Source: an uncultured bacterium (GTDB lineage Bacteria; Chlamydiota; Chlamydiia; Chlamydiales; JAAKFR01). From it: a DNA stretch of 64,000 bases. Of the stretch, positions 1 through 44,439 are shown in pieces. The translations under genes were made by a program, and so were the position numbers. The stretch is taken from positions 53,367 through 117,366 of the forward strand of contig CAZPPS010000001.1 of assembly GCA_964588495.1 (NCBI GenBank). The letters run 5' to 3'. The notes below the pieces were generated by a model that saw nothing but the letters and a program-made list of their open reading frames with translations, was not told where the DNA came from and ran no database searches. Position 1 is the stretch's first letter, and the number at the start of each line of letters is the position of its first letter.

Positions 1-1082
1 ATGAGAAAATCCCTTTTACAGCAAAACTTGTCCAAGAATCGCTGGAAAACATCCCCTCTTTAGATGCTTTGATGTTTCAAGTAGACGGGTTTGTGCAAAA
101 TGTCCCTATTTCAGGCCAAACTTCTTTTAAGAATCTGGAAATTACATCCGCTCTCTCTCACGTGGAAACCGAGCCTTTTTGGGTCTATAAAAATGAGGAT
201 GGCACTTCCCATATCCCCTCTAACACGGCGAATGCCACTTTAGGGGAACCCCTTTTGGTTGCCAAAAACTTCAAAAAAAATGATGTCCGTCTCGGCGATC
301 GTGGTTACCTTGCCTATTACGCAATGACAGGAAGCTCTCTTCAGGAGCAAAGAATTCCTGTCTATGTTGCCGGTTTTTATGATCCTGGCATGATCCCTGC
401 CGGAAGCAAACTCATTTTTGTCGATTCCAAGGTCGCGGCCATTTTACGCAGCAATTCCACAGTTAACGATCCGATGCTCGGCAACGGAGTCAATATCTGG
501 TTGAATAATCTCAAAGAGGCGACCCTTGCCAAAGATGAGTTGATCAAATCTCTAAAAGCACGCGGTATCGATCAATATTGGAATGTTCAGTCCTATCATG
601 ACTATGAGTTTACAAAGCCCATCTTAGAACAGCTTCAAAGCGATAAACACCTTTTCTCGCTCATTGCCATTATCATACTCATTGTGGCCTGCTCTAACAT
701 CATTTCGATGTTAATCCTCCTTGTGAATGACAAAAAGAAAGAGATCGGGATTTTGCAGTCGATGGGAGCTTCTCCTTTACGGATTGCAACCATTTTTGGA
801 CTCTGCGGCTTTGCGACAGGCGTCCTCAGCTGTGTGATTGGAGTGACCGCTGCGATCTTTACGTTGAAAAATCTGCAATCTTTAGTCTCGTTTTTAAGTT
901 TCATGCAAGGAAGGGATGCATTTCAGACCGCTTTTTACGGAAGCAGCTTACCAAATACCCTAAGCTACTCTGTTCTTTTCATGGTCCTCATTGCAACGCT
1001 TGCGATCTCATTGCTTGCTGGCATTGTTCCAGCCATTAAAGCAGCCAGGGTCCGCCCCACAGCTATTTTGAGGTCGGAATGA
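1..1082 (+). CDS. LolC/LolE-family (FtsX-like) lipoprotein-release ABC permease, 5' end outside the window
   Basis: The frame is open from base 3 to the left edge. The C-terminus has an FtsX-type membrane domain (LFSLIAIIILIVACSNIISML, GILQSMGASP). The stop overlaps the start of a LolD-like ATPase (ATGA). Confidence 0.7.
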   Translation, partial: EKIPFTAKLVQESLENIPSLDALMFQVDGFVQNVPISGQTSFKNLEITSALSHVETEPFWVYKNEDGTSHIPSNTANATLGEPLLVAKNFKKNDVRLGDRGYLAYYAMTGSSLQEQRIPVYVAGFYDPGMIPAGSKLIFVDSKVAAILRSNSTVNDPMLGNGVNIWLNNLKEATLAKDELIKSLKARGIDQYWNVQSYHDYEFTKPILEQLQSDKHLFSLIAIIILIVACSNIISMLILLVNDKKKEIGILQSMGASPLRIATIFGLCGFATGVLSCVIGVTAAIFTLKNLQSLVSFLSFMQGRDAFQTAFYGSSLPNTLSYSVLFMVLIATLAISLLAGIVPAIKAARVRPTAILRSE

Positions 1083-1753
1083 TGAATAAGCCGATTTTAT
1101 CCGCCAAAAATATCTGCAAAAAGTTCAATGCCCCCAATGAGATTGAAATCCTCAAAGATGTCAATCTCGATCTTTACCAAGGGCAAAGCATTGCCATTAT
1201 GGGAGCTTCCGGCGAAGGGAAGAGCACCCTTTTACAGATTTTAGGAACACTGGATGAACCTACTTCTGGCTCAATTGTAATCGCCGGCAAATCTGTTGCC
1301 CAAAAGCCCTCCCCCATTTTGCGTAACGCACATATCGGTTTTGTATTTCAAGCCTATCATTTGCTCGAAGATTATTCCGTTTTACAAAACGTGCTGATGC
1401 CCGCTTTGATTGGAGGCAAAGACATCTCCAAAAATTCACCAAGCTACAATAGGGCTTTGAGTTTGCTGGATCGTGTGGGCCTCAGCTCCCGAGTTCATTT
1501 TCAAAGTAAATTCCTCTCTGGAGGAGAAAAACAGCGGGCAGCCCTTGCAAGAGCGCTGTGTAATGATCCTGAAATCATCCTCGCAGACGAACCTTCAGGA
1601 AATCTTGACCACGCCACTTCTTCCCATATCCACGAGCTCTTGATGGAAGCTGTCAAGGAATTCAACAAGGCTTTGATTGTTGTCACCCATGATACCAACC
1701 TCGCCTCTCTTTGCGATAAAAAACTCATTTTATGTAACGGAGTCATTGTCTAA
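1079..1753 (+). CDS. lolD: Lipoprotein-release ABC transporter ATP-binding protein
   Basis: Walker [13 protein letters not shown] signature LSGGEKQR and Walker B IILADEP are present. The gene is translationally coupled to the upstream FtsX-type permease. Confidence 0.75.
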
Positions 1754-2946
1754 TGGATCAAACTTTTCTAAATCACCTGCAAACACAACTCGATGAACTG
1801 AAAGCTAACGGCCTCTACAAAACGGAAAGAGTGATCGCAAGCCCGCAAAGAGCCGATATTACGCTGAATGACAACTCTCATGTCCTCAATTTCTGCGCCA
1901 ATAACTATTTGGGGCTGGGAGCCCATCCCGATATCATTCAGGCAGCGGCCAGCAGTATGGAACAGTATGGTTTTGGGATGGCCTCTGTCCGTTTTATCTG
2001 CGGCACACAAACCGTACACATCGAATTAGAGCATAAAATCACCAATTTCTTAGCAACCGAAGAGACGATTCTGTATAGCTCCTGCTTCGATGCAAACGGC
2101 GGTCTTTTTGAAACCATTTTGGGCCCAGAAGATGCTGTAATCAGTGATTCTTTGAATCACGCAAGTATTATCGACGGGATCCGCCTTTGCAAAGCCAAGC
2201 GCCTCCGTTACCAAAACAACAACATGCAAGATCTTGAAGAGAAGCTTAAAGAAGCCCAGGATTCACGCTTCCGTTTGATCTCGACAGATGGCGTCTTTTC
2301 GATGGATGGCATTATTGCCAATCTCCCCGCTGTCTGTGATCTGGCAGATAAATATAATGCCCTTGTCATGATCGATGATTGCCACGCCGTCGGCTTTTTA
2401 GGACAAAACGGACGGGGCACACACGAATATTGGAATTTGCTCGGTCGCATCGATATCATCACAGGAACTTTAGGCAAAGCTCTCGGCGGCGCCTCGGGTG
2501 GATACACTTCAGGACGAAAAGAGATTATCCAGTGGCTCCGTCAACGCTCACGCCCCTATCTTTTCTCAAACACACTCTGTCCCAATATCGCAGCCGCAAG
2601 CCTGGAAGTTTTTAGGCTTCTGGAAAGAGAAGGAGATCAGCTCCGCAAGCGCCTCAAAGAAAATGCTGACTATTTTAGAAAAAAAATGACAGCCTTGGGC
2701 TTTACTCTTGCTGGTAAAGACCACCCGATCATCCCTGTGATGCTCGGAGATGCAAAACTCACACAAACATTTGCCAATCGGATGATTCAGGAAGGTATTT
2801 ATGTGATTGGATTTTTCTATCCAGTTGTCCCTCAAGGGGCGGCGCGCATACGCACACAGATGTCTGCAGCCCATTCCCTCCATGATTTGGACCGGGCAAT
2901 TGCGGCCTTCGAAAAGGTTGGCAAAGAACTCAACGTAATTAAGTAA
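1753..2946 (+). CDS. kbl: 2-amino-3-ketobutyrate CoA ligase (glycine C-acetyltransferase)
   Basis: Full-length class-II aminotransferase pattern ([14 protein letters not shown]-lysine region [14 protein letters not shown]). It is collinear with E. coli Kbl as I recall it and is followed directly by tdh. Confidence 0.85.
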
Positions 2947-2959
2947 TAGGAAAAAAATT

Positions 2960-3982
2960 ATGAAAGCAATCATTAAAAAACAAGCGGGCGTCGGCCTTTG
3001 GATGGAAGATATCAACATCCCAGAGCCTGGCGATAATGAGCTTTTAATCAAAGTCACGAAAACGGCGATCTGCGGAACAGACATTCACCTCTACCTTTGG
3101 GATGATGTGGCTCAAAGAAATCTCCCAGTCCCTTCAGTAATCGGCCATGAATTTATCGGTACAGTGGCAGGAATGGGGCGCAATGTTCAAGGCTTTAAAG
3201 AAGGAGACCGTGTCTCTGGAGAAGGGCATATCACCTGCGGAAGATGCCGCCAATGCCAAACAGGAATGAGCGTTCTTTGCCCCAACACTTTCAATATCGC
3301 CATTCATGGAAAAGGGTGCTTTGCCGAATATTTCTGTTTGCCGGCTCAGAATGCCTTTTTAATGCCCGCCGAAATCCCAGATGAAATTGCGACGATTTTT
3401 GATCCTTTAGGAAATGCTGTCCACACAGCTCTCTCTTTTGATCTTGTGGGCAAAGATGTTTTGATTACAGGCGCTGGCCCCATTGGCTTGATGACAATTC
3501 CGATCGTGAAAAAGGCGGGAGCCCGTCACGTCATCATTTCCGATCTGAACCCTCTACGCCTCTCTTTGGCCAAAAAAATGGGAGCAGACGCTGCTGTTAA
3601 TGTGAAAGAAGAGTCGCTCAAAGATGTGATGCAGAAAAAGGGAATCGATGGATTTGATGTCTGCCTTGAAATGTCTGGAAGTGCCCATGCCCTAGCTTCC
3701 CTTCCTGAACTTGCAGGCTACGGCGGAAAGCTGGCCATCCTTGGTTTCCCCCCAGCAACTACACAACTGGATTGGCACAACGTCCTTTTCAAAATGCTGA
3801 CGATTAAAGGAATCTATGGACGGGAAATCTTCCGCACATGGTATCAGGTTCTCCACCTTTTACAAAGCGGCCTCGATGTGTCCCCTGTGATTACACATAG
3901 ACTCCACATCGACGAGTTCCAGAAAGGCTTCGATGCCATGCTCGAGGGTAGCTGCGGCAAAGTAATCCTCAACTGGACCTGA
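2960..3982 (+). CDS. tdh: L-threonine 3-dehydrogenase
   Basis: Zn-ADH fold with GHEFIGTV and GEGHITCGRCRQC. IFDPLGNAVHTALSFDLVGKDVLITGAGPIG closely matches the E. coli Tdh sequence as I recall it. A kbl-tdh pair is the classical arrangement. Confidence 0.85.
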   Translation: MKAIIKKQAGVGLWMEDINIPEPGDNELLIKVTKTAICGTDIHLYLWDDVAQRNLPVPSVIGHEFIGTVAGMGRNVQGFKEGDRVSGEGHITCGRCRQCQTGMSVLCPNTFNIAIHGKGCFAEYFCLPAQNAFLMPAEIPDEIATIFDPLGNAVHTALSFDLVGKDVLITGAGPIGLMTIPIVKKAGARHVIISDLNPLRLSLAKKMGADAAVNVKEESLKDVMQKKGIDGFDVCLEMSGSAHALASLPELAGYGGKLAILGFPPATTQLDWHNVLFKMLTIKGIYGREIFRTWYQVLHLLQSGLDVSPVITHRLHIDEFQKGFDAMLEGSCGKVILNWT

Positions 3983-3989
3983 GAGGGGT

Positions 3990-4086
3990 AATTTAAACAC
4001 GAAGGCACGAACATAGAAAGACACAAAGAGGAACTATTTCTTTCTCTTTGTGTCTTTGCATCTTCGTGTCTTTGTGTTGAATTCCT
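3990..4086. repeat. Octamer-array palindromic intergenic element, simple form (A-loop-A')
   Basis: aaacacgaaggcacgaacatagaaagacacaaagag / ctctttgtgtctttgcatcttcgtgtctttgtgtt arms with an aatt..gaatt terminus. It lies just after the tdh stop. Confidence 0.85.
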
Positions 4087-4107
4087 CCCAACGTTCAACA
4101 AAATAAC

Positions 4108-4962
4108 TTGTTAGCCACAAATAGGCCTATGGACAATATACTCACAGATTACAAAGCACAAATAGATCAAACGCTCAATAACCTCATCCCGCCAACCTCC
4201 CCTCTTTTCCATTCTCTTTATGAAGGTGCAAGGTATTCGTTGTTGGCGCCGGGGAAAAGGATTCGTCCTCTGCTCACAGTTTGCACGGCGGAAATGATCA
4301 AGCCAGGAGCTCTCCAAGCCGCGCTCATCCCTGCTTGCGCGCTCGAAATGGTACATACCTATTCCTTAATCCACGACGATCTTCCTTGCATGGATGATGA
4401 TGATTTTAGAAGAGGGCTTCCCACTCTTCACCGTGTTTATACAGAAGGACACGCTGTTTTAGCAGGTGATTACTTGCTGACACATGCCTTCGAATCTCTA
4501 TCCACTTCCCCTCTTTTAAATCCTGAGCAAAAAATAGAACTGGTGCGTGTACTCGCCCAAACTTCGGGTGGTGAGGGAATGATTGGCGGCCAAATTATGG
4601 ATATCGAGCAATCGAGCGACATCCAAGAGATGCACGCGCGTAAAACGGGGGCGCTATTCTGTGCAGCTGTTGTCTTTGGGGGAATTGTTGCAAAGGCAAG
4701 CCCCGAGACATTGCAACTTTTGCACACTTTTGGCCTTCAGTTTGGCAATCTTTTTCAAATACTTGACGATATTTCCGACGAAGATCATCCTTTGGGCAAT
4801 GAAAAAGCAAAAGAGAGTGCCTTTGAGCTCCATAAAAAAACTCTTGAAACCTTGGATCTACTCTCTTTTGATTCTTCTTCTCTTACAAAACTCATTGAGC
4901 TGGTGGTGAATGGAAACCAAAGTTTTACGTTACACACATGTTCGTCCTCAGCGGATTTATAA
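4108..4962 (+). CDS. ispA: Short-chain polyprenyl (geranyl/farnesyl) diphosphate synthase
   Basis: Two Asp-rich motifs are present: LIHDDLPCMDDDDFRRG and FQILDDISD. TTG start; the 3' end overlaps the next ORF by 53 nt, so the exact ends are uncertain. Confidence 0.75.
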   Translation: MLATNRPMDNILTDYKAQIDQTLNNLIPPTSPLFHSLYEGARYSLLAPGKRIRPLLTVCTAEMIKPGALQAALIPACALEMVHTYSLIHDDLPCMDDDDFRRGLPTLHRVYTEGHAVLAGDYLLTHAFESLSTSPLLNPEQKIELVRVLAQTSGGEGMIGGQIMDIEQSSDIQEMHARKTGALFCAAVVFGGIVAKASPETLQLLHTFGLQFGNLFQILDDISDEDHPLGNEKAKESAFELHKKTLETLDLLSFDSSSLTKLIELVVNGNQSFTLHTCSSSADL

Positions 4963-5578
4963 TATCCATCACAGCTTTTCCAAGCGCCTTTTTGACATTA
5001 TCTTTAGCTCAGCTGTCTTGATTATTTTTTCCCCTCTATACCTTGCGATTATGATCGGCATCCGCCTCTCATCGCCAGGTTCTCCTCTATTTATTCAGCC
5101 AAGGTTAGGAGCTGGAGGCAAAGTTTTCAAATGCTACAAATTCAGAACGATGTACTCTGATGCTGAAAAACGTTTGCGCACACTTTTAGCCGAAAATCCA
5201 GAGCTCAAAGCCGAATGGGAAGAAAATCAAAAACTCAAAAATGACCCCCGCATCTTTTCGTTGGGCAAAACCTTAAGACGCACTTCTCTCGACGAACTTC
5301 CCCAGTTTTGGAATGTGTTGATGGGAGATTTAAGCGTTGTGGGCCCAAGACCCTACATGATCACACAAAGAAAGGCTTTAGGCGAGCAACTCTACACGAT
5401 TCTCTCTGTCAAACCTGGGATTACGGGCCTTTGGCAAACCTCAGGAAGAAGCCACACAAATTTCCAACAAAGAATATCGTTAGATGCCTCCTATGTAGAG
5501 ATCCACTCGTTTTTCTTCGATCTCTTCCTCGTCTTTAAAACCATTGTGCAGATGCTCTTCTCCAAAAATGCGTATTAA
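4910..5578 (+). CDS. Bacterial sugar transferase (polyprenyl-phosphate sugar-phosphotransferase, WbaP/PglC-like)
   Basis: One N-terminal TM helix followed by the conserved domain KVFKCYKFRTM ... DELPQFWNVLMGDLSVVGPRP ... KPGITGLWQ. Confidence 0.7.
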   Translation: METKVLRYTHVRPQRIYNIHHSFSKRLFDIIFSSAVLIIFSPLYLAIMIGIRLSSPGSPLFIQPRLGAGGKVFKCYKFRTMYSDAEKRLRTLLAENPELKAEWEENQKLKNDPRIFSLGKTLRRTSLDELPQFWNVLMGDLSVVGPRPYMITQRKALGEQLYTILSVKPGITGLWQTSGRSHTNFQQRISLDASYVEIHSFFFDLFLVFKTIVQMLFSKNAY

Positions 5579-5677
5579 CCTAGATATGATACCCTTTAAA
5601 TAGCTTTTAACCCTGATGGAATTGAATAAATATATTAAAAACTCAAATAAGCTGATAAGCCATAGACGCAGTTAGAA

Positions 5678-5768
5678 GCATGATAAGAAGGATATGCTTG
5701 ATCTACTTGATAATAAATTTTATTTTTTTTCTTTATCATGCACATCAAGCATATCCTTCTTATCATGC
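5678..5768. repeat. Perfect 25-bp inverted repeat with a 41-nt AT-rich loop
   Basis: gcatgataagaaggatatgcttgat (5678-5702) is the exact reverse complement of 5744-5768. A related half-copy lies at 55004-55037. Confidence 0.85.
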
Positions 5769-5881
5769 TCTTGGACTGAGCCTTGAATTATGTATTAGTT
5801 TTGTAATTATCTTCTGTTTTTCTGTGTTTTTTTTAACGCTGAGGCATGGAGAACACAGAAAAGAAAGGGAATATTTATTAA

Positions 5882-6385
5882 ATGCGTATTAATAGTAAAA
5901 CAGCCTTTTTTTTATCCCTGTTCTTCCTCCTAGTGGGACCTATCTTTTTCCCAAAACTCCACACCCTCTATTTGGCTCCGTATCTTGTCATCTCGCTGTA
6001 TCAACATTCGAAGTTTGGGGTACTTTGGCGTGCCCTCTTTTGCGGAATTCTTCTGGATCTTCTCTCTTCTGGCCCTTTTTTTGGCTTCTCAGCGCTTGAG
6101 TTTTGTTTTGTCAGTTGGCTTCTTCAGTCCCAGACCCGGAACTTTTTTGTGGATAAACTTTCTACACTCCCTTTAATGAGCTACCTTTTCACGCTGCTTT
6201 CCACGGGTTTCTCTTACATATTTAATATTTTCTTCAATGATGCAGCCGCTCCCACCTTATTTTGGGTCTTTAGCGATCTCATTTGCATGCCACTCATCGA
6301 AGCTTTCTACGCCCTGCTTGTATTTTCTCTCCCTTTTGAGTTAATATACCTTTTTAAAAAATTACGTTTGGCTAGAAAACGATGA
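5882..6385 (+). CDS. Polytopic small membrane protein, MreD-like
   Basis: 167 aa with 4-5 hydrophobic helices. The LFCGILLDLLSSGPFFGFSAL pattern is reminiscent of MreD. Assignment is by weak motif only. Confidence 0.35.
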   Translation: MRINSKTAFFLSLFFLLVGPIFFPKLHTLYLAPYLVISLYQHSKFGVLWRALFCGILLDLLSSGPFFGFSALEFCFVSWLLQSQTRNFFVDKLSTLPLMSYLFTLLSTGFSYIFNIFFNDAAAPTLFWVFSDLICMPLIEAFYALLVFSLPFELIYLFKKLRLARKR

Positions 6386-7227
6386 TTCTATCTGGAAAAG
6401 CTGTTGCTGATGAAATTAAATTAGAGCTGAAAGCTCAAATCGAAACACTTCCCTCATCTCCTGGTTTAGCAGTGATTTTGGTGGGCAATAATCCCGCTTC
6501 TGAAAGTTACATCAAGATGAAACGGCAAGCCTGTCAGGCTGTAGGCATTACCTCCTTTTTTCACCCTTTTCCTGAATCGATCAGAGAAGACGAGCTTTTA
6601 GAATTTATACAAAAGCAAAATGCCGATCCTAAAGTGGATGGAATTTTAGTCCAATTTCCCCTCCCCTCTCACATTTCGACCGAAAAAGTGATCGAAGCGA
6701 TCGACCCTAACAAAGACGTCGACGGTTTCCATCCAATCAACATGGGAAAGTTGCTTTTAGGGCTAAAAGGGGGATTTATTCCGTGCACACCTCTTGGCAT
6801 TAAAGTACTTCTTGAGCGTTCACACATTTCCGTAGAAGGTAAAGACGTTGTGATCGTAGGACGGAGCCAGATTGTAGGCAAACCTTTAGCCGCCTTATTT
6901 TTACAAAATACCAGAGGCTGTAACGCCACGGTGACTGTCATCCACAGCAAAAGCTCCCATTTTGTAGAACACACAAAACGGGCCGACATTTTGATTGCAG
7001 CGATGGGATCTCCCCATTTCATTAAGGCTGATATGATTAAAGAGGGGGCAGTCGTTGTGGATGTTGGGATCAATCGTCTCGAAAACAGTCTTGTCGGCGA
7101 TGTCGATTTTAACGAAGTTGAAAAAAAATGTCAGGCAATCACCCCAGTTCCTGGAGGTGTTGGTCCCATGACTGTTGCGATGCTCCTACAAAATACATGT
7201 TCAAGCTATATAAAAAAGTTATCCTAA
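6382..7227 (+). CDS. folD: Bifunctional methylenetetrahydrofolate dehydrogenase/cyclohydrolase
   Basis: Typical FolD sequence along the full length (ASESYIKMKRQAC, GILVQFPLP, DVDGFHPINMGKL, VVIVGRSQIVGKPLA, TPVPGGVGPMTVAMLL). Confidence 0.9.
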   Translation: MILSGKAVADEIKLELKAQIETLPSSPGLAVILVGNNPASESYIKMKRQACQAVGITSFFHPFPESIREDELLEFIQKQNADPKVDGILVQFPLPSHISTEKVIEAIDPNKDVDGFHPINMGKLLLGLKGGFIPCTPLGIKVLLERSHISVEGKDVVIVGRSQIVGKPLAALFLQNTRGCNATVTVIHSKSSHFVEHTKRADILIAAMGSPHFIKADMIKEGAVVVDVGINRLENSLVGDVDFNEVEKKCQAITPVPGGVGPMTVAMLLQNTCSSYIKKLS

Positions 7228-8102
7228 TCCTCCTTGTCCTAACAAGTTGCAATCGCACTACCAAGCCCATTCGACTGGAAGGCATTGCAATGACCATCCC
7301 CTATTGCGTGCAAATCGCTCAGCCAAGCCCTCTTGCTGAAAATATCATCTCCTCCACTTTTGCTGAAATCAACGCGATCTACAACAACTGGAACCCCCAC
7401 TCTGAAATCTCCAAGCTAAATACCCTCAAAGCCTTCGAAAAACAGCAGCTATCTCCCGAGCTTTACTCTTTTCTACAATTCACAAACTCCATTGTTCGAC
7501 TCACAGAAGGGCGTTTTGATCCCACTGTCGCCTCTTTGCACCAACTCTGGAAAAAAAGCTTAAAAGAGAACCACTTACCCTCAGAAATCGAGCTGCAAAA
7601 TCTCTCCCCAGCGATCGGCTGGGACAAAATCCATCTTGAAGAGGGCCATTTCTGGAAAGAACAGGACGCCACCACACTTGATCTCTGTGGCATCGCCAAA
7701 GGTTACGCTGTCGACCTCATCACCGAACGATTGCAAGCTGCTGGTCTTAGAGACATTTACGTCGAATGGGGTGGCGAGATTCGCACCTCGGGCAACCACC
7801 CAGACAATAGACCCTGGAAAATTGGAATTATCGGCTTAATCCCCCTAGAACTCAAAAATGAAGCCATAGCCACCAGCGGCTCCTACATCCAGCAATGGAC
7901 AATCGATTCAATCACATACACACACATCATCGACCCCCGCACCCAAAAGCCTCTCAATAACGCCCCTATCACAAGCGCGACAGTCATCGCCCCCACCTGC
8001 GCCGAAGCCGACGCCCTCGCCACCGCCTTCATGCTCTTCCCCACATGCGCCGAAGCCCAATCTTGGGCTCAAAACCACGGCATTTCCCTCTACCTCTGGT
8101 AG
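7197..8102 (+). CDS. apbE: ApbE-family FAD:protein FMN transferase lipoprotein
   Basis: The internal ATG at 7197 gives a lipoprotein signal (KKVILILLVLTSC). ApbE-like blocks are FDPTVASL, GIAKGYAVD, ATSGSY and HIIDPRT. The longer 7128 start would overlap folD and encodes a non-signal sequence. Confidence 0.8.
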   Translation: MFKLYKKVILILLVLTSCNRTTKPIRLEGIAMTIPYCVQIAQPSPLAENIISSTFAEINAIYNNWNPHSEISKLNTLKAFEKQQLSPELYSFLQFTNSIVRLTEGRFDPTVASLHQLWKKSLKENHLPSEIELQNLSPAIGWDKIHLEEGHFWKEQDATTLDLCGIAKGYAVDLITERLQAAGLRDIYVEWGGEIRTSGNHPDNRPWKIGIIGLIPLELKNEAIATSGSYIQQWTIDSITYTHIIDPRTQKPLNNAPITSATVIAPTCAEADALATAFMLFPTCAEAQSWAQNHGISLYLW

Positions 8103-8203
8103 CCCGCTCGATTCCATTACGAAGGGATGGATCAAGCTTTAGTTCAAATAAAAAATATAACAAATAGGTGGTAATTAAATTTTTTTATTGTATATTTAGA
8201 AAG

Positions 8204-9187
8204 ATGTACCATTTAAAAGACGAACAATCAGAATTCAACACACCAGAAGCTTTGTCTTCTATTGTTAAGCGTTTAGGTAATCCAATATCCACTGCACTGC
8301 TTCACCTTTCGTGCCAGATTTTCAAAACTCCCCAAATCGATGGAGTGATTGGCTATCAAAGAAGTGGCAAAGTGGCAGTCGTCATTGGAGATCCTGTTTG
8401 TTTACCAAAAGACACAGCAGCGCTGATAAACGCCTTTCATCATTATTGCCGGCAAAATCATTGGAAAACAGTCTATTTATCTGCTTCTCATGACTTTGCT
8501 CACTTTGCCATCAACAATGAATGCAAGACATCCGTTCAGTTTGGCTCCGTTGTCAGCGTCGATCCCTCAACTTTTAAAAAGAAACAGAAACTCCGCTGGA
8601 AAATTAATCAGTCTATTCAACATGGTGTTCACGTTAAAGAATATAAAGGCTTTGACCCCTTATTAGAAAATAAGATTAAACATTGCATTGATACCTGGCT
8701 CGAGCAAAGACGAGGGCCGCAGATTCATCTAGGTGGCATCAATTTTTCTAATAATAATGAAGAAAGACGCATTTTTTATGCGGAGCAAAACGGTAACGTC
8801 ATCGGGTTTTTAATGCTCCATCCCCTCGACCGATTTCAGGGTTGGGTTGTCTGCTCTTACCTGGCAATTCAAGGTTCACCTGTTGGAACCACAGAAAATT
8901 TAATGTGTACATGCTTCGATGCGTTAGCTGCAGAAAATTGCCACTATCTCTGTTTAGGAATAGCGGTTGGGGGCGAACTTGGTGAAATTGTGGGCTTAAA
9001 TGCTTTTGGAAAAAAAGTTGCCAGGCTAATTTTTAATGGAGCACGCCGATTTTTTAAACTGGATGCAAAAGGGCACTATTTTCATAAGTTCCATCCCGAT
9101 TTTCACCCAACCTTTTTGGTATTCAGAGATAAAATATCAATTTCTGAGTTATTAGCGATTAAAAACGTACTAAATGTAAAGTTATAA
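8204..9187 (+). CDS. Stand-alone DUF2156-like protein (resembles the C-terminal aminoacyl-phosphatidylglycerol synthase domain of MprF/LysX)
   Basis: About 327 aa and soluble. It shows the GYQRSGKVAVVIGDPVC pattern and overall architecture I associate with DUF2156. The ATG at 8204 is preferred over the GTG at 8168. No membrane flippase domain is present. Confidence 0.5.
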   Translation: MYHLKDEQSEFNTPEALSSIVKRLGNPISTALLHLSCQIFKTPQIDGVIGYQRSGKVAVVIGDPVCLPKDTAALINAFHHYCRQNHWKTVYLSASHDFAHFAINNECKTSVQFGSVVSVDPSTFKKKQKLRWKINQSIQHGVHVKEYKGFDPLLENKIKHCIDTWLEQRRGPQIHLGGINFSNNNEERRIFYAEQNGNVIGFLMLHPLDRFQGWVVCSYLAIQGSPVGTTENLMCTCFDALAAENCHYLCLGIAVGGELGEIVGLNAFGKKVARLIFNGARRFFKLDAKGHYFHKFHPDFHPTFLVFRDKISISELLAIKNVLNVKL

Positions 9188-9194
9188 AGGTATT

Positions 9195-10340
9195 ATGATT
9201 AAAACCGCCTTTAAGATGTTGACCGGAAACAAAGCTGCTTTTCTTGGCATCATTTTTGGTATTTTTTTGGCGATTTTATTGATTTCGCAGCAATCTGCGA
9301 TCTATTTAGGTTTGATCTCAAGATCGTACCGCATTGTTACAAATATTCCCTCTCCCGATGTTTGGGTAGTAGATCATGCAACTGAGGGAGAAGATCTTAT
9401 CCGGCCCATGCCTAGAAATTATGTCCAGCTTATCAAAAGCACTCCAGGCGTTGAATGGGCAGTGCCTGTGAACTATTTACTATTGCCCCTAAAAACAGGC
9501 TCAGGGAACTTTAAAGTCGCAGAAATTTATGGCCTTGATGATGAAACTTTAACTGGGATGCCTCAATTACTAGAAGGTCAACCCGATGATTTGCGCCGCA
9601 GTGGCGGAGTAATCATTGATTCCAATGCTGCGAGTGACCTTCTCGCCAAAATTGGACCCGATGGTAAAAAAATCCCGCTGAAGATCGGCGATCAAATTGA
9701 AATCAATGATGTCAAGGCCACCATTGTTGGAATTGCCAAAACAAGCCCCGGATTTTTCCCCCAACCGATCATTTTTACCACAACAAGCCAGGCGCAGCTC
9801 TTTGGAGGATCAAATCGTATCCAATACATTGCCGCAAAGACACGTGAAGGTGCCAATATTAAAGAAGTGATACAGGAAATCAATGCTAATAAAAATGTTG
9901 TAGCCTTGACCAAAGATCAGCTCGCCCACAGAATTGCGAACCACTTTTTAAAGACAGGAATCCTCATCAATTTTGGAATTTCTGTTTTACTTGGAATGAT
10001 CATCGGCTTTTCAATCGCAGGACAGATTTTTTATATCATTACGACCCAAAATATTGCCTATTATGCCTTAATCAAGGCTCTCGGCGGCACAGGAAAAATG
10101 ATTCTCAAAATGATTTTATTCCAAGCCCTCATTGCAGTTGCAATTGGATACATTTTAGGGACAGTTGTGACACTTCTTTGGGGCCTTGCAGTAAGAAATA
10201 CGACACTGGCCTTTGAATTTAGACCAGAATTGCTTGTGTTTACAGGAGTGGCAGCGTTGTTGATTTGCGCTTTTATCTCCTTCTTAAGTATAAAGAAAGT
10301 TTTTAAAGTAGACCCCCATACCCTGATGACAAGTTTATGA
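9195..10340 (+). CDS. ABC exporter permease, FtsX/DevC/MacB-like
   Basis: N-terminal TM helix, large periplasmic domain and a C-terminal FtsX-type helix bundle. The stop overlaps the ATPase gene start. Confidence 0.7.
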   Translation: MIKTAFKMLTGNKAAFLGIIFGIFLAILLISQQSAIYLGLISRSYRIVTNIPSPDVWVVDHATEGEDLIRPMPRNYVQLIKSTPGVEWAVPVNYLLLPLKTGSGNFKVAEIYGLDDETLTGMPQLLEGQPDDLRRSGGVIIDSNAASDLLAKIGPDGKKIPLKIGDQIEINDVKATIVGIAKTSPGFFPQPIIFTTTSQAQLFGGSNRIQYIAAKTREGANIKEVIQEINANKNVVALTKDQLAHRIANHFLKTGILINFGISVLLGMIIGFSIAGQIFYIITTQNIAYYALIKALGGTGKMILKMILFQALIAVAIGYILGTVVTLLWGLAVRNTTLAFEFRPELLVFTGVAALLICAFISFLSIKKVFKVDPHTLMTSL

Positions 10341-11011
10341 TAGCAGTTGAATGCAAAAACATTAAAAAAATTTACAAAAATGGCAACAATGAAGTTGTGG
10401 CGTTAAAAGGCATTGACCTTGAAATCCCAGATAAAAAACTGACTCTTTTAGTTGGTCCATCAGGCTCTGGAAAAACGACCCTTCTTTCGATCATTGAAAC
10501 GATCCTGACTCCCGATTCCGGAGAGCTGATCATTTTAGGGCAGCATGTGCACAATATGAACGAATTAGAAAAATCCCGTTTTCGCAACGCTAATATTGGC
10601 GTCGTGTTTCAAACACTCCATCTGATCCCCACACTGACTGTATTAGAAAATGTGATTTTGCCCATGCTCATCAAGGGGGAGAGTGAGGATCTAGCTAAAA
10701 AGAAAGGGACAGCCCTTCTCGACAAATTTAATATTAAAGATAAGGTGGACTGCTCCCCTACTCAACTATCTAGAGGTGAGCAGCAAAGAGCGGCAATTGC
10801 CCGCGCTTTGATAAACGATCCCAAAATTATTCTCTGTGATGAGCCGACAGGCGCTTTGGATCAGGAAAATGGACACGCATTTATGGGTATTTTAAAAGAT
10901 TTGGCCGCATCCGAAAATCGGGCCATTTTTGTCATCACGCACGATCAGCGTATTTTCTCTTTTGGTGATCATATTATAAACATTAACGATGGTAGGATTG
11001 AAAAAAAATGA
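10337..11011 (+). CDS. ABC exporter ATP-binding protein (DevA/MacB-NBD-like)
   Basis: Walker A GPSGSGKTT, signature LSRGEQQR, Walker B ILCDEPTGALD. Overlapping stop/start codons couple it to both neighbours. Confidence 0.8.
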   Translation: MIAVECKNIKKIYKNGNNEVVALKGIDLEIPDKKLTLLVGPSGSGKTTLLSIIETILTPDSGELIILGQHVHNMNELEKSRFRNANIGVVFQTLHLIPTLTVLENVILPMLIKGESEDLAKKKGTALLDKFNIKDKVDCSPTQLSRGEQQRAAIARALINDPKIILCDEPTGALDQENGHAFMGILKDLAASENRAIFVITHDQRIFSFGDHIININDGRIEKK

Positions 11012-12015
11012 AAACAAAATATGCTTATCAAATCCTAAGTTTATTATTTTCTTGTGTCGTATTGGCTGGAAATAGAGCCGATGCAGAAGCTCCTGCTGTG
11101 AATGCTCCGGCAAAAAATCCCCCATTTGAGAATTATATTACCGGGACAGGAATTGTTGAGCCAACATCTGGCAATATAATTATCAGCTCTTCCTTGAACC
11201 GGAGGGTTGAAAAAATCGATGTGAAGGTCAACGATCAAGTCAAAAAAGGGGATATCCTGTTTGAGCTCTACAATCAGGATTTAGTTTCAGCTTTCAATGT
11301 CAGACAGAAAAAGTATGACGAGGCTATTTCGAATCTACATAGACTGGAAGCTTTGCCTAAAGAAGAAGACCTTAAGATTGCACAAGCCAATCTGAACCGT
11401 GCCCAGGCGATCGTTCATGAAGCCTCCGAGCTTTGGTGCCAATCTTGCACCTGCGACGAAAAACAAATCCGCTTTTTTAAACTTCAACAAGCTGAAGCTG
11501 AATTATGTGCAGAATGCGCCCGGTTTGAAAAAGTAAGAAAAGGAGCTGGCAAGTTTGATCTTAAAATTGCTCAAGATCAGGCAGGAGCTGCAAGAGCAGA
11601 TATGGAATCCATCCGAAGTGAAATTGAGCGGACAATCGTTAGAGCTCCCATTGACGGCACTATTTTGACCATTAAAATTCGCGAGGGTGAAAATCTCGAC
11701 CCGGGAAAATCAGCCCTTGTGATGGGAAATATTGAAGCGCTCAGAGTAAGAGTTGCTATCGACCAGTTCAATGCTGCAAAATTTAACCCTGAAGCCCAAG
11801 CTGTCGCTTATAAACAAGGCGATATGACAGCACCATTTCCTCTTCAATTTCTCTACGTTGAACCTGTCATGGTGCCTAAGAAATACTTGAGCAACGATCT
11901 TCATGAAAAAGTGGATACCCAAAACTTTGAAATCCTCTACGGCATCGATAAAACACAAGCCCACATCTTTATCGGCGAACAACTCAATGTCTACATCGAG
12001 GTTACTAAGAAATAA
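11008..12015 (+). CDS. HlyD/DevB-type periplasmic adaptor (membrane fusion protein)
   Basis: Signal/anchor sequence, lipoyl-like half motifs (VKKGDILFEL ... APIDGTILTI) and a central coiled-coil hairpin. It is the third gene of the permease-ATPase-adaptor unit. Confidence 0.65.
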   Translation: MKTKYAYQILSLLFSCVVLAGNRADAEAPAVNAPAKNPPFENYITGTGIVEPTSGNIIISSSLNRRVEKIDVKVNDQVKKGDILFELYNQDLVSAFNVRQKKYDEAISNLHRLEALPKEEDLKIAQANLNRAQAIVHEASELWCQSCTCDEKQIRFFKLQQAEAELCAECARFEKVRKGAGKFDLKIAQDQAGAARADMESIRSEIERTIVRAPIDGTILTIKIREGENLDPGKSALVMGNIEALRVRVAIDQFNAAKFNPEAQAVAYKQGDMTAPFPLQFLYVEPVMVPKKYLSNDLHEKVDTQNFEILYGIDKTQAHIFIGEQLNVYIEVTKK

Positions 12016-12029
12016 GTCGCGAGCCATTT

Positions 12030-12250
12030 TTTAAACACAAAGGCACAAAGACACAAAGAGATACATATTTTTTTTCCTCTCTGTGTCCTCTGTGTGCTCT
12101 GTGGTTTTTTAAAAATGTCCCGAAAGTTGTTATCAATAAAGGCTTTGAGCCCGTTTTAAAACCACAGAGCACACAGAGAACAGAGAGAAGGGAAAATTAA
12201 TAACTTGCCTCTCTTTGTGTCTTTGTATCTTCGTGTCTTTGTGTTGAATT
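12030..12250. repeat. Octamer-array palindromic element, composite form (A-B'-core-B-A')
   Basis: Outer caaag/ctttg arms enclose inner ctctg/cagag arms and a core of about 50 bp. Confidence 0.85.
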
Positions 12251-12305
12251 ATGCTTTGGCACATAACTTGCTCCCCTATTCAGGTAAATGGAGAGGTAGT
12301 TTGGT

Positions 12306-13088
12306 ATGCGGACAATAGCGATCGCCAATCAAAAGGGGGGCGTTGGGAAAAGTACAACGGCCATTAATTTGGCAGCTGCCCTTGCGCGCAGAAACAAGAA
12401 GGTTTTGTTGATTGACGCTGACTCTCAGGGGCATTCGACAGTCGGACTCAATATTTCGACCGAAAATTGCCTCACAATCGCAGAACTACTCACAGATCAA
12501 GGAGTCGCTGCTAAAGATGTGATCCAAAAAACCTATATCCCCAATCTGGATATTATCCCTGGCGATCTCACTCTCTCTGTTGCAGATCTTAAGCTTGCCT
12601 CCCAAGGCTGCAAAGAATTTAAACTGAGAAATAAACTCCAAGCTATTCAAAATGAATATGCCTATGCCCTCATCGATTGTCCCCCGAGTTTTGGGATCCT
12701 GATGACAAACGCCTTAACTGCGGGAGAAGAGATTCTCCTTCCCATTCAACTCGGTTACTTAAGTTTTGAAGGGGTAAACAGCTTTATTGATACCATCAAC
12801 TTGGTCAACAAAGACATTAACGCCAATATCAACCACAAAATCAAGCTCCTCGGCGTTTTGGTCACCTTTTTTGATACACGCACTAAATTTTCAAAAGAGA
12901 TTTGCAGCGCCTTAAACGACATTTTTAAAGAAAAAATGTTTAAGACAAAGATTCCCCAAAATATCAAGCTCAATGAAGCCCAATCCAAAGGGATTGCCGT
13001 CTTTGACTACGACCCTAAAAGCAAGGGAGCCCTTGCCTACGAAAATCTAGCAGAAGAAATCATAGGAACACGCGCATGTCAGCAATAA
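12306..13088 (+). CDS. parA: ParA/Soj-type partition ATPase
   Basis: Deviant Walker A KGGVGKSTTAINLA, plus LLIDADSQGHST and DCPPS motifs. Confidence 0.85.
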   Translation: MRTIAIANQKGGVGKSTTAINLAAALARRNKKVLLIDADSQGHSTVGLNISTENCLTIAELLTDQGVAAKDVIQKTYIPNLDIIPGDLTLSVADLKLASQGCKEFKLRNKLQAIQNEYAYALIDCPPSFGILMTNALTAGEEILLPIQLGYLSFEGVNSFIDTINLVNKDINANINHKIKLLGVLVTFFDTRTKFSKEICSALNDIFKEKMFKTKIPQNIKLNEAQSKGIAVFDYDPKSKGALAYENLAEEIIGTRACQQ

Positions 13089-13297
13089 CACGTTTAAGCG
13101 AAAAGATGAAAAAAAAGATCTCCATGAGCGAGTACATCGAAAAAAAGCCTTCCGCTCGCAAAATCTACTCTATCCCTAAAGAAGATATGGATGTCCTTAA
13201 CACCATCTACACAAAACGGCTCAACACCCACCGAGCTGCCTCTGTTTCCGACATCCTCTCCGAGGCCATCTACCTCCTCTACAGCCAAGAGGGCTAG
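13076..13297 (+). CDS. Small putative ribbon-helix-helix protein coupled to parA (ParG/CopG-like centromere binder candidate)
   Basis: 73 aa; overlaps the parA stop by 13 nt. The C-terminal half has a beta-alpha-alpha pattern (IYSIP / KEDMDVLNTIYTKRL / SVSDILSEAIYLLY). No family was recognised. Confidence 0.35.
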   Translation: MSAITRLSEKMKKKISMSEYIEKKPSARKIYSIPKEDMDVLNTIYTKRLNTHRAASVSDILSEAIYLLYSQEG

Positions 13298-13301
13298 CAA
13301 A

Positions 13302-13619
13302 TTATTTGAGGCTTTTCAAAGCTTTTTTCATGATCAAAGTCAGTCGGAACTTTTTTCTATTTTTTACGAATAATTTAAGCTCTAAAACCGTTTTGTCTTC
13401 TAGATAGACAAAGATGGCTTCAAAAAATCCATGCGGGAGCTCTTCTTTTTCGATTTCAATAATTTTCCTCTCGTCCCCAAACTCTCCATTTGTCACTTGC
13501 ATAGCCGTAAGATCTGGAATACAAACTTCCGCTTGTTCCACTCTTTCAACATCAGGCTCATCTCCCTCTTCAGAGAGAAGCCAAGTCGGCAAAAAATTGT
13601 CCCCAGTCTCTGAAATCAT
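13302..13619 (-). CDS. Hypothetical acidic protein
   Basis: 105-aa ORF convergent with the parA unit. A near-consensus promoter ends 6 nt before its ATG (see the promoter feature). No recognisable domain. Confidence 0.35.
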   Translation of the reverse strand: MISETGDNFLPTWLLSEEGDEPDVERVEQAEVCIPDLTAMQVTNGEFGDERKIIEIEKEELPHGFFEAIFVYLEDKTVLELKLFVKNRKKFRLTLIMKKALKSLK

Positions 13620-13625
13620 ATAAAA

Positions 13626-13654
13626 ATTATAGTATATAAATAATTATTTTTCAA
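13626..13654 (-). promoter_or_regulatory. Sigma70/66-like promoter TTGAAA-17 nt-TATAAT ending 6 nt upstream of the ATG at 13619 (predicts a leaderless mRNA)
   Basis: Minus-strand reading: agatcgTTGAAAaataattatttatatacTATAATttttatATG. No Shine-Dalgarno sequence is possible in the 6-nt gap. Confidence 0.4.
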
Positions 13655-13703
13655 CGATCTATATATTAATTTTTTGTAAATAGAGCTATGGAGGACAAAG
13701 GGA

Positions 13704-14159
13704 TTACTGGCGGTAGCTTTTGACGGCGCGGTCCATCTCTCGTTTCTTTTCGCGCTCGATGAGAGATTGCCGCTTGTCAGCTTTCTTTTTACCTCGGCCG
13801 TAGCCTAACGAGAGTTTGACTATGCCTTTTTTGAGATAGAGGGCGATCGGAAAGAGGGTGAGCCCTTTTTGTTGAACCATCTCTTTGAGTTTGGCAATTT
13901 CACGTTTGTGCATCAAGAGCTTCCGGTCTCTGCGCTCTTCATGATTGTGGATGTTGCCGTAGCGGTAAGGGGCGATGCTCGCTCCAATGAGCCAGAGCTC
14001 TCCTTCGACAACTTTGACGTAGGCTTCGGCCAAATTCCCACCGTGGGCACGTAAAGATTTGATTTCTGTGCCTAAAAGGGAGATTCCCGCCTCGAAAGTT
14101 TCAAGGACTTCATAATCATGAAAAGCGCGCCTATTGCGCACTAGCTCGTTTTCGCTCAT
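13704..14159 (-). CDS. smpB: SsrA-binding protein
   Basis: Typical SmpB sequence ([43 protein letters not shown]) and a basic C-terminal tail. Confidence 0.9.
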
Positions 14160-14300
14160 ACATTACCAAAGAATAATCCCATCATAACACACCAAGAAAA
14201 ATAGAGCTTTATATATTATTATTCCAACTTGAAAACTCCGTGGAGAAAAATCAGATTTTTCCTACAATAGACGACTCATTATAGCAAATGAAGGAACAAC

Positions 14301-14675
14301 ATGAGTGAAGTTTCAAAAAATTTAGCAGTCTGGTTTGAAATCCCGGTTACAGATTTAGCAAGAGCGCAAGAGTTCTATTCTAAAGTGTTAGACACAGAGA
14401 CCCACGAAATGGATATGGGCCCTTTCAAAATGGCATTTTTCCCTCATGACAACAATGTCGCAGGTGCTTTAGTTGAAGGGGACGGCTACATCCCCGGAGA
14501 TAAAGGTCCCCTGATTTACCTCAATGGCGGCGAAGATTTGGCTCTCCCTTTAAGCCGAGTAGCAGCAGCCGGTGGCAAAGTCCTTCAGGAGAAAATGAGC
14601 CTTGGGCCCTATGGCTTCATGGCTATCTTCCTCGACACCGAAGGCAACCGCCTTGCCCTCCATAGCATGAAATAA
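14301..14675 (+). CDS. VOC/glyoxalase-bleomycin-resistance family protein
   Basis: 124 aa. It has the paired beta-alpha-beta-beta-beta pattern, the WFEIPVTDLARAQEFYSKVL start and the FLDTEGNRLALHS end typical of this family. Confidence 0.7.
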   Translation: MSEVSKNLAVWFEIPVTDLARAQEFYSKVLDTETHEMDMGPFKMAFFPHDNNVAGALVEGDGYIPGDKGPLIYLNGGEDLALPLSRVAAAGGKVLQEKMSLGPYGFMAIFLDTEGNRLALHSMK

Positions 14676-14708
14676 TTTTTCTCTATGCGATGGCGTGACT
14701 GAACCTAT

Positions 14709-14805
14709 AGAAACGCAAAGAAGCAAAGACACAAAAGCGCAACGAGAAAGAATGCTTATTTTTTTCTTCTCTGCGTCTTAACAGCTTTGCCTTTGCGTTT
14801 CAATA
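14709..14805. repeat. Octamer-array palindromic element, simple, gcaaag variant
   Basis: gaaacgcaaagaagcaaagacacaaaagcgc ... gctttgcctttgcgtttc, between convergent genes. Confidence 0.75.
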
Positions 14806-14825
14806 GTTTTGGACACGACAGGCTC

Positions 14826-15233
14826 TTAGCGGAGGAGGTAGACGATGAGGACAACTCCTATAACAAAGACGAGGAGTGCCAACAGCAAATCAAGCACATT
14901 GGATGACTGATAAATACCCCCCTGGATTTGATTTTGCGTCTTTTTATATTTTAGAAAGGCAAAGATACAAAATAATGAACCGACGCCAATTAAAAAAAGC
15001 CCAAAAATGGATGCATATTCCGCGCGCGAAGTCGATTCTGTCACCTCTGATTTTCCAAGCATGATTCCGATTTGCTGTAAGAGGAGAGAAAATCTTTCGA
15101 AAATAAATCCAAAAGCCATAATTCCCAGATTGGTTCTAATCCAAGCTAGGAAAGTTCTTTCATTGGCCAAATGATCTTTAGGGTCGCCCATATTCTCCTC
15201 CTTTTTAACCTGCGTTTTGGGTTCTTTCCCCAT
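14826..15233 (-). CDS. DUF202/YidH-family small membrane protein
   Basis: LANERTFLAWIRTNLGIMAFG motif and three TM helices. It starts 8 nt after the stop of the upstream ABC gene, so it is probably co-transcribed. Confidence 0.6.
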   Translation of the reverse strand: MGKEPKTQVKKEENMGDPKDHLANERTFLAWIRTNLGIMAFGFIFERFSLLLQQIGIMLGKSEVTESTSRAEYASIFGLFLIGVGSLFCIFAFLKYKKTQNQIQGGIYQSSNVLDLLLALLVFVIGVVLIVYLLR

Positions 15234-15241
15234 TCTCAGGT

Positions 15242-22392: not shown

Positions 22393-22399
22393 AGATCCC

Positions 22400-22475
22400 T
22401 GCAAAAACATAGAGAACACAGAGAAGGAAAAAAAATCTATTTCTCTGCTTCTTTGCACTTTCGCCTCTGAGTTAA
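22400..22475. repeat. Degenerate member of the same element family
   Basis: aacatagagaacacagagaagg ... ttctctgcttctttgcactttcgcctctgag. The arm symmetry is eroded. Confidence 0.5.
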
Positions 22476-22540
22476 AAAAGAGGTTTGCCAAAAAAGGGCG
22501 ACCTCTTTAAACTGAGCGGCAACTCAGTGAGTTTGGACTT

Positions 22541-41058: not shown

Positions 41059-41660
41059 AAAAACATTTTATCACAGGGCTCATCATCCTCCTTCCGTTTG
41101 CAGTCACAACTGCCCTCGTCTTTTTTATCATCAATTTCTTGACCAATCCTTTTGTTGCAGTTGTAGAGCAATTTATTGGCAAACAGCAATGGTTTCTCAA
41201 TCACAAAGGGGCCTTCCATCTCACCCTTCAGCTTTTGATGTTCTTTGCCCTCATTTTTTTTACAATTTTGCTCGGATTTTTAGCCCGCATTGTCTTCTTT
41301 AAATCGATGCTTTCCCTCTACGATTATGTCCTGCATCGGATTCCAGTCATTAAAACGATTTATAAGGCCTCCCAGCAAGTCATCAAAACCATTTTTGGTT
41401 CTACATCAAATTCTTTTAAGCAAGTGGTCATGGTGAAATTTCCCTCTGAAGGAGCCTATTCCATCGGATTAATCAGCAGCCCAGCTCCCGAAATTTGCAC
41501 GAAGACGATGGGAAGATCTCTTGTGACCGTTTTTGTCCCCACAACTCCCAACCCCACCTCAGGTTTTTTGATGATGTATCGGGAAGAAGAGGTCATCTAT
41601 CTCGACATGAAAGTAGAGGATGCTTTCAAATACATCATTTCGTGTGGCGTGATCGCCTAA
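41056..41660 (+). CDS. DUF502-family membrane protein
   Basis: Two N-terminal TM helices followed by HRIPVIKTIYKASQQV and a beta-rich C-domain. The GTG start overlaps the rnr stop (GTGA). Confidence 0.6.
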
Positions 41661-41748
41661 AAACCTGAGTAAAGGACAGAAATTGAGTTGATTTTTTTTA
41701 AGATTATCAGGTAATCTTTGCACTTCTTCTTTGTAATGAGGTATTTTT

Positions 41749-41916: not shown

Positions 41917-41929
41917 GGATTATTAAAAT

Positions 41930-42088: not shown

Positions 42089-42143
42089 GCCTTTTTACTC
42101 ACAGATTCCCGTGCCTGTGCCCGACTTTCGAGCTTCTCGAACG

Positions 42144-42338: not shown

Positions 42339-42341
42339 TCA

Positions 42342-44427: not shown

Positions 44428-44439
44428 AAGGAAGACTGA

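Follow-up and report, generated by a model that had tools for sequence, protein, structure and literature searches.

The 64,000-nt stretch of an uncultured bacterium of the Chlamydiales analysed here (contig CAZPPS010000001.1, positions 53,367 to 117,366, forward strand; below, the window) carries eight intergenic palindromes whose arms are arrays of short tandem units. In our opinion they are probably gene-less members, singlets as well as inverted doublets, of a widespread and seemingly undescribed family of selfish palindromic repeats. They resemble REPINs (REP doublets forming hairpins, REP standing for repetitive extragenic palindrome) and miniature inverted-repeat transposable elements (MITEs), and would be the non-autonomous relatives of mini-cassettes that encode a small protein called GxxExxY. 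Gene-less and gene-bearing elements have the same arm architecture, form two size classes, and occur together on single contigs and in one strain. Further, a cassette is present in one genome and absent from another at one conserved operon site, and the family has expanded specifically in the lineage of the window.

An earlier note on this DNA, made from its letters, had listed the eight palindromes, and reading of the loci together with an inverted-repeat scan finds one at every position listed. It described an arm as about four tandem octamers of the type RYACRAAG. The arrays are indeed tandem: Tandem Repeats Finder detects arrays with a period of 8 and 3.1-4.6 copies, reading ACACAAAG in left arms and TCTTTGTG in right arms, at 4045, 12035, 12212, 42149, 42301, 49733 and 49915. 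But the conserved unit is not the octamer; it is a heptamer core, C-R-C-N-R-A-G, with a linker of 1-2 nt. Each arm has three to four such units and an end that reads TTMAAC; the termini TTMAAC...GTTKAA are borne out. If an arm is defined by the terminus T-T-H-A-M, at least three cores at a period of 8-10 nt and a mirrored arm, seven of the eight loci belong to the family and the one at 22404-22476 is degenerate. The terminal 20-mer, written as the pattern TTMAACRCRAAGRCRCRAAG, has eight matches in the window at no more than two mismatches, where 0.01 would be expected. A three-core regular expression finds six arms in the window and none in each of 20 shuffled versions, and a hidden Markov model (HMM) of the arm found no additional strong copies there. 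In other genomes, the consensus T-T-H-A-M immediately before the first core, and the core itself, are the same in 86 paired elements.

Evidence for the proposed relationship is that the same arms elsewhere enclose a gene. Among the loci found with the 20-mer in other genomes, two (L077 and L095) have arms that enclose a gene about 125-134 codons long. The product of the first matches the NCBIfam model TIGR04256, "GxxExxY protein", with an E value of 2e-42, and that of the second matches an HMM built from these two proteins themselves. An independent sample consisted of 80 metagenome loci selected by the GxxExxY protein alone, in which 70 genes had enough flanking sequence. An inverted repeat with a score of at least 12 and at least two cores brackets 46 of these 70 genes and none of 89 control positions, placed 950 nt away; when every inverted repeat with at least that score is counted, the numbers are 60 of 70 and 3 of 89. 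Over all DNA examined, spans from arm to arm are bimodal, 7-177 nt when gene-less and 361-473 nt when gene-bearing, and GxxExxY lies inside 36 of the 39 long spans. We saw no transposase family between arms; GxxExxY is the only recurrent cargo. Metagenome contigs such as L133, L167, L173 and L189 contain gene-less copies next to cassettes of matching flavour, and a Chlamydiae metagenome-assembled genome (MAG; L094) has arms of the CACAAAG and CGCAGAG types upstream of a GxxExxY gene.

The whole cassette is typically 430-500 bp long and very compact. Its left arm abuts the start codon. In most cases 2-30 nt separate this arm from the conserved portion of the protein, and 3-20 nt separate that portion from the right arm. 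Since the arms sit so tight against the gene, there is no space for a promoter. The cassette is co-oriented with the upstream open reading frame (ORF) in 32 of 41 cases, thus the arms are probably transcribed. The residues E33, D73, E83 and K85 are invariant, and their arrangement (E33 ... D73 ... E83-x-K85) is the signature of PD-(D/E)XK nucleases. GxxExxY genes are often present in several copies per genome, and the family (TIGR04256 / PF13366) comprises 20,479 clusters at 50% identity. A survey of PD-(D/E)XK proteins gives its function as "Unknown" and records "Multiple transfers" between divisions (PMC3424549). A search by sequence returned no relatives in the PDB. The family is absent from cultured phage genomes and has only 8 plasmid records, several of which are replicons of several hundred kb, so no vector is obvious; about eight real elements lie on IMG/VR contigs.

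Three further observations concern the cassettes. On one IMG/VR contig (L210, reverse strand, 3015-3792 and 9453-9739) arms of the CGCAAAG type surround other tiny ORFs, 62-66 aa long and antisense to the purine-rich arm, which have no Pfam match; therefore the arms may carry cargo besides GxxExxY. In a Schlesneria MAG (L015, 5320-5900) a GxxExxY gene is bracketed by different arms, a tandem 10-mer (CACGGATGAA)n, so the protein family uses at least a second arm family. Finally, many of the top cluster representatives are 260-295 aa long and have two GxxExxY domains; they represent either genuine fusions in tandem or pairs of neighbouring cassettes annotated as a single gene.

The relationship is easy to illustrate with Sphingomonas parapaucimobilis YK209 (NZ_CP155749.1). 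In this strain an annotated "GxxExxY protein" gene lies, co-oriented, in the spacer between fabD and fabG. Its arms read TTCA(CGCGAAG-type)x3-ATG ... (CTTCGCG)n-TGAA, and the cassette (1495-1923 of locus L220) is situated inside an essential operon, fabD-fabG-acpP-fabF, with 2 nt between it and the start annotated for fabG. In Sphingomonas paeninsulae fabD and fabG are contiguous, with a spacer of 32 nt, which is an empty site. The replicons of YK209 contain at least 16 further arm matches, and those listed fall under no annotated feature in a PLSDB gene table that is incomplete. The two that we inspected carry no gene; they are nested palindromes in which the outer arms are built of CGCGAAG and the inner ones of CGCGGAG. 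We note in passing that the RefSeq coding sequence of the YK209 gene runs on through the right arm.

The distribution of the arms fits a mobile family, one of the options in the earlier note; absence from relatives, occurrence in many phyla and a gene-bearing counterpart all support it. The closest relatives of the LeuRS of the window, at no more than 78% identity, are from Chlamydiales MAGs. Four related Chlamydiales loci (L118, L120, L201 and L202; 84 kb, with proteins 72-78% identical to the window copies) have no arms, even with a relaxed two-core pattern. This indicates that the family expanded in the window's own lineage. Two of the four have the MacB-ABC-HlyD operon of the window, and L120 has the RNase R-DUF502-ybeY region; in the relatives, the LPG synthase-MacB-ABC-HlyD operon ends without an element. 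In L120, L201 and L202 the neighbouring genes are kept and synteny breaks exactly at the sites of the elements, so what is scored here is the absence of arms, not a clean empty site. Across 185,579 species genomes the 20-mer scan yielded at least 117 loci, with about 70 chance matches expected from the information content of the pattern. Nevertheless, 82 of 129 arm matches, among the matches listed, have a mirror arm at no more than 5 mismatches in 20, mostly within 60-540 nt; since this is about two thirds, most matches are true palindromic elements. The matches listed come from Acidobacteriota, Chloroflexota, Verrucomicrobiota, Planctomycetota, Chlamydiota, Myxococcota (a Sorangium locus with 72% GC), Bacteroidota, Gamma- and Betaproteobacteria, Gemmatimonadota and others, and the arm type is found in at least ten phyla.

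Within the window, where the genes are ordinary bacterial housekeeping genes, the elements are as follows (z is the score of the RNA fold against shuffled sequences).

3993-4081, simple element of 89 nt: left arm 3993-4033 (TTAAAC, four period-8 units, AGAGGAA), loop 4034-4040, right arm 4041-4081 (ending GTTGAA); arms of 41 nt, 83% complementary in the inverted-repeat scan; z -10.0 and -8.3; begins 11 nt past the stop of an ADH gene (2960-3982), upstream of a polyprenyl synthase gene.
12031-12248, composite (doublet) of 218 nt: outer arms 12031-12062 and 12210-12248, inner pyrimidine-type period-9 arm 12075-12107, centre 12108-12157, inner purine-type arm 12158-12189; z -14; between an HlyD-family gene (stop at 12015) and a ParA-like gene (12306).
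14710-14801, degenerate simple element of 92 nt: AAACGCAAAG...CTTTGCGTTTC; z -7.1 and -5.7, weak HMM matches; convergent genes on both sides, with stops at 14675 and 14826.
22404-22476, decayed relic: period-9 AACACAGAG units on the left, CTCTGC/CTTTGC/CTCTGAG units on the right.
30491-30575, simple element of 85 nt: TTCAACGCAAAG...CTTTGCGTTGAA; arms 75% complementary; z -6; between minus-strand genes.
42145-42337, composite of 193 nt: outer arms 42145-42183 and 42299-42337, inner period-9 arms 42197-42222 and 42256-42281; z -14.9; upstream of ybeY.
49729-49943, composite of 215 nt: outer arms 49729-49767 and 49913-49943, inner arms 49788-49820 and 49863-49895; z -9.6 and -10.3; upstream of an MqnC-like radical SAM gene.
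59455-59540, simple element of 86 nt: CGCAGAG / GCGCAAGAG flavour; z -11.5 and -10.1; convergent, between an LptD-like gene (stop at 59426) and a P-type ATPase gene (stop at 59545).

We call the locus at 22404-22476 a degenerate relic because it hardly folds (z only -1.9 and -1.6 for 22398-22478). The three loci at 12030, 42144 and 49727 are composites of about 200 nt (193-218 nt), alignable over their full length, which have inside them a second pair of period-9 arms, CTCTGTGNN / CACAGAGNN, that the earlier note did not describe. These inner arms face "inside out", that is, ...CTCTGTGGTTT, then a weakly conserved centre of 35-50 nt, then AAACCACAGAG.... The best reading of a composite is a doublet in which an asymmetric unit occurs twice in inverted orientation; this unit would consist of a period-8 arm of the AAAG type, a T-run and a period-9 arm of the AGAG type. 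The arrangement is like that of REPIN doublets and of those in bacterial interspersed mosaic elements (BIMEs).

Some neighbouring repeats should be kept apart from the family. A perfect 24-nt inverted repeat, ACTCACCTTACGCAAAAAATCCCC ... GGGGATTTTTTGCGTAAGGTGAGT, with its arms 113 nt apart (42341-42501, upstream of ybeY), directly abuts the composite at 42145-42337 and is unrelated in sequence to the heptamer family. Also unrelated is an intergenic palindrome at 5677-5769 with 37-nt arms, 92% complementary, and an AT-rich loop; right after it, at about 5808-5858, TTTCTGTGTTTTTTTTAACGCTGAGGCATGGAGAACACAGAAAAG resembles a decayed inside-out inner module of the composites. Directly behind the relic, and ahead of a TetR-family gene, 22478-22515 holds a small hairpin, AAAAAGAGGTTTGCC...GGGCGACCTCTTTAAA. 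At 34558-34949 a unit of 157 nt is repeated 2.5 times with 99% identity, adjoining two minus-strand tRNA-Met genes (34924-34998 and 35036-35110). At its end each unit repeats the 3' half of the neighbouring tRNA-Met (GGTTCAAGTCCGACTGCCGCTACA), and the array looks like serial att-site duplications left behind by an integrative element.

The long stems lead to the question of what selection acts on. The earlier note observed that the two arms of a locus change together and offered two reasons, selection for the hairpin or copying of a unit that was already palindromic. The observation is right: the flavour of the unit varies between elements (GCGCAAAG, ACACGAAG, ACGCAAAG, CGCAGAG etc.) and is identical in all units and both arms within any one element. 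Of the two reasons, the data speak for copying. In the window, arms at different loci differ at 1-3 of 38 nt and the two arms of one locus at 5-6, so that arms are closer between loci than within a locus, and two loci have the same left/right asymmetry, TTAAAC..AAAGG versus TTCAAC..AAAGA.

Selection for the hairpin, on the other hand, is not supported, as variable core positions are not kept paired beyond the homogeneity of the element as a whole. In the protein-selected cassettes, the between-arm mismatch along the core is 0.06 at C, 0.11 at R, 0.015 at C, 0.33 at N, 0.07 at R, 0.04 at A and 0.007 at G, with 0.17 at the linker base. Units that would pair and units that would not are nearly equally alike at the three variable core positions (0.93 versus 0.92, 0.66 versus 0.59 and 0.94 versus 0.93); a symmetry specific to the register appears only at the linker base (0.71 versus 0.47). 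Of the arm mismatches, 46 would be G.U on the sense strand of the gene, 40 on the antisense strand, and 92 are transversions, hence there is no strand bias of G.U over A.C. In a formal count over 72 elements, 83.8% of the cells are paired, compared with 78.8% after shuffling; the first 20 columns of the alignment were selected for pairing, so that the count favours a stem. The 152 double-sided changes that it contains fall on flavour positions, and the terminal C/A position is unpaired in 29 of the 72 elements. Because paired units are no likelier to be alike than unpaired ones, G.U shows no strand bias and N is mismatched in 33% of cases, the co-change of the arms is one flavour common to the whole element plus mirror copying, and not a set of compensatory substitutions that preserve a hairpin. 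It is the motif that is conserved rather than the base pairs.

Based on these results we propose the following. In its full form, the unit would be a pair of arms around a GxxExxY protein of about 125 aa with an intact PD-(D/E)XK motif, placed within a few nucleotides of the start and stop codons. Units would spread by copying of the ready-made palindrome, like REPINs and MITEs. The heptamer repeats would serve for recognition by a protein and not for base pairing, and the protein acting on them would most plausibly be the GxxExxY nuclease, working in trans. Insertion would take place in short spacers just after genes, with which the units would be co-transcribed. The long stem would be a by-product; it may still, incidentally, affect the decay of mRNA or its processing by RNase III, while such decay or processing as the selected function is not supported by the data.

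Several points weigh against this proposal. There is no GxxExxY ORF in the 64-kb window. A target-site duplication was not found either: in the 86 elements, direct-repeat matches of 3-8 nt at offsets 0-7 are at chance level. We know of no transposase among PD-(D/E)XK proteins of this size. The AlphaFold model of a GxxExxY protein, with a pLDDT of 52, was too poor for a fold search and was not used. The two Sphingomonas species are about 72% identical in DNA, so their comparison does not define the exact boundaries of the cassette. Since the arms of L210 bracket other tiny ORFs, GxxExxY could be a passenger and not the engine. Transposition by the arms and GxxExxY is a proposal drawn from sequence comparison; no transposition event, excision product or enzyme activity was observed.

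A bolder version of the proposal is conceivable, although we would not bet on it. According to it, the GxxExxY cassettes (~440 bp) would be the smallest autonomous DNA mobile elements known: the 125-aa nuclease would recognise the C-R-C-N-R-A-G arrays in its own arms, perhaps extruded as a hairpin or cruciform, and would move or copy the unit without target duplication, the palindromes of the window being its REPIN-like progeny.

The most serious competitor, which we nevertheless consider unlikely, is that the elements are RNA hairpins which the host selects at the 3' ends of genes, for termination, for protection from 3' exonucleases or as RNase III sites. The stems are indeed long and stable on both strands (z from -5.7 to -14.9 at seven window loci), and intervening sequences (IVSs) in 23S rRNA, with stems of similar size, are RNase III substrates (PMC4990558). 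The location also fits. The earlier note placed all copies in intergenic DNA near a stop codon, several of them between convergent genes. All eight are between ORFs, and several begin 8-34 nt past a stop codon (median about 11 nt in other genomes), but only two are in convergent gaps. Five are in co-directional gaps and none is in the six divergent gaps of the window; together with the co-orientation of cassettes with upstream genes, this is what a transcribed hairpin would predict, whereas four elements elsewhere are in divergent gaps, as judged by crude ORF contexts.

The absence of a T/U tract argues against the part of this explanation that concerns termination, which the earlier note had named as one option. 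An intrinsic (Rho-independent) terminator has a G+C-rich stem directly followed by a run of U/T. In the scans of 1-20000 and 40001-60000 no such tract follows the outer hairpins, and none of them was called terminator-like; the stems are followed by ATTCCT, ATTATG, AAATGA or AAATTC. For the loci at 22404 and 30491, outside the scanned ranges, the call rests on the flanks only. Nor are variable positions kept paired beyond the homogeneity of the whole element, or G.U preferred over A.C on the sense strand. Moreover, the LPG synthase operon of the relatives does without an element, and one motif is kept in loci from 41% to 72% GC, which a function of structure alone would not need.

If the motif matters more than the pairing, the arms might be arrays of binding sites for a DNA-binding protein of the host, with a role in the nucleoid, in replication or in recombination, as BIMEs are for integration host factor (IHF) and gyrase, and GxxExxY might merely have landed nearby. 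The regular spacing of the units, 8-10 nt, agrees with that, as does the conservation of the heptamer above that of pairing. We think that the chance of this is slim. Flavours of the core differ within one genome (AAAG, AGAG and GCAGAG in the window; GAAG and GGAG in Sphingomonas), the arrays are wholly absent from the 84 kb of the four relatives, and the bracketing of GxxExxY is tight and specific. To our knowledge, no host factor has a C-R-C-N-R-A-G site. An origin as integron attC-like sites is very improbable: purine + TTCAAC termini (e.g. at 30491 and 49729) give ATTCAAC...GTTGAAT, which fits RYYYAAC...GTTRRRY, but termini with TTAAAC (3993, 12031 and 42145) or with TTCACC, which is common in cassettes, do not, the elements lie singly, 5-10 kb apart, among housekeeping genes and not in a co-oriented cassette array, and tandem-heptamer arms are, as far as we know, not an attC feature; no systematic search for intI was made. 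We also considered, and dropped, a telomere-like reading (TG-rich strand polarity) and a DnaA-box-like one (TTCACCACA).

Among described systems, the pair of REP/REPIN and RAYT (REP-associated tyrosine transposase) comes closest to a mobile heptamer family. In both, extragenic palindromes are dispersed mostly just downstream of genes, and their copy number differs strongly between related genomes (PMC3733652). In both, the repeats occur singly or as inverted doublets forming long hairpins, repeats of the same kind flank a small gene of the nuclease type, and a target-site duplication is missing. There are also differences. The window arms are 30-40 nt arrays of tandem heptamers and a REP is a single palindrome of 20-40 bp; very similar arm sequences recur across phyla in the heptamer family; and the partner is the PD-(D/E)XK-type GxxExxY of about 125 aa, not a HUH tyrosine transposase of the IS200/IS605 type. 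The elements are not REPs proper: the tag GTAG or CGTC is absent at seven of the eight window loci, its occurrence at 59455 is incidental, and the identity of the flanked gene as GxxExxY (TIGR04256 / PF13366) rules out a RAYT (IS200/IS605-like HUH Y1 transposase).

With MITEs the elements have in common a length of 85-220 nt, the lack of coding capacity, the intergenic location, bursts specific to a lineage, and terminal inverted repeats that are also found on a longer, gene-bearing element. They differ in having no target-site duplication, a partner that encodes no known transposase, and terminal repeats that are themselves repetitive. A MITE of a DDE-type insertion sequence was rejected, as the 86 elements have no target-site duplication and no recognised transposase lies between arms. 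The composites of the window, like BIMEs, are two asymmetric units inverted around a short spacer; in sequence, however, the units of the two are not related, and we identified no motifs for IHF or gyrase. Another parallel is the IVS in 23S rRNA of Coxiella and Leptospira, with an ORF for the S23p four-helix bundle. It is 428 nt long and transcribed within its host RNA, and it combines a stem of 28 bp with a small ORF whose role is unknown; its origin and mobility are unexplained (PMC4990558). It is similar to the GxxExxY cassette as a selfish unit of about 430 nt in which terminal inverted repeats bracket a small ORF. However, IVSs are located in defined helices of 23S rRNA and are excised by RNase III, while the window elements are between protein genes, and the ORF family is not GxxExxY. 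An IVS in helix 9, 25 or 45 was rejected for the window, where Rfam finds no rRNA.

The heptamer-array repeats look like an undescribed family, in agreement with the earlier note, which did not recognise them. In the window, Rfam reports only two tRNAs at the gathering threshold and, by gathering or E-value threshold alike, no family for the elements, which match, far below threshold, models of plant and animal miRNA precursors, i.e. generic long hairpins. Our literature search returned no paper with the repeat sequence or describing an association of such arms with GxxExxY. Beyond the terminus we found no conservation of the flanks; the palindrome extends into them in L007, L050, L053 and L080, inconsistently across elements.

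What would this mean for the bacteria concerned? If the heptamer elements are what we propose, a class of repeats that annotation pipelines leave blank in many phyla now has a name, and the dense intergenic palindromes of environmental Chlamydiota and other groups would be accounted for without terminators. Genes bracketed by arms, and lone arms that proliferate, suggest a testable role for GxxExxY as a compact selfish element. Should the cassettes even prove autonomous, a REPtron-type system would exist on a different enzyme fold in more than ten bacterial phyla, and a protein family with some 20,000 sequence clusters would gain a function. In addition, a link to the unexplained mini-cassettes of the IVS type is suggested. 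Beside REP and RAYT, this would be a second, independent case of palindromic repeats that co-evolve with a small nuclease gene.

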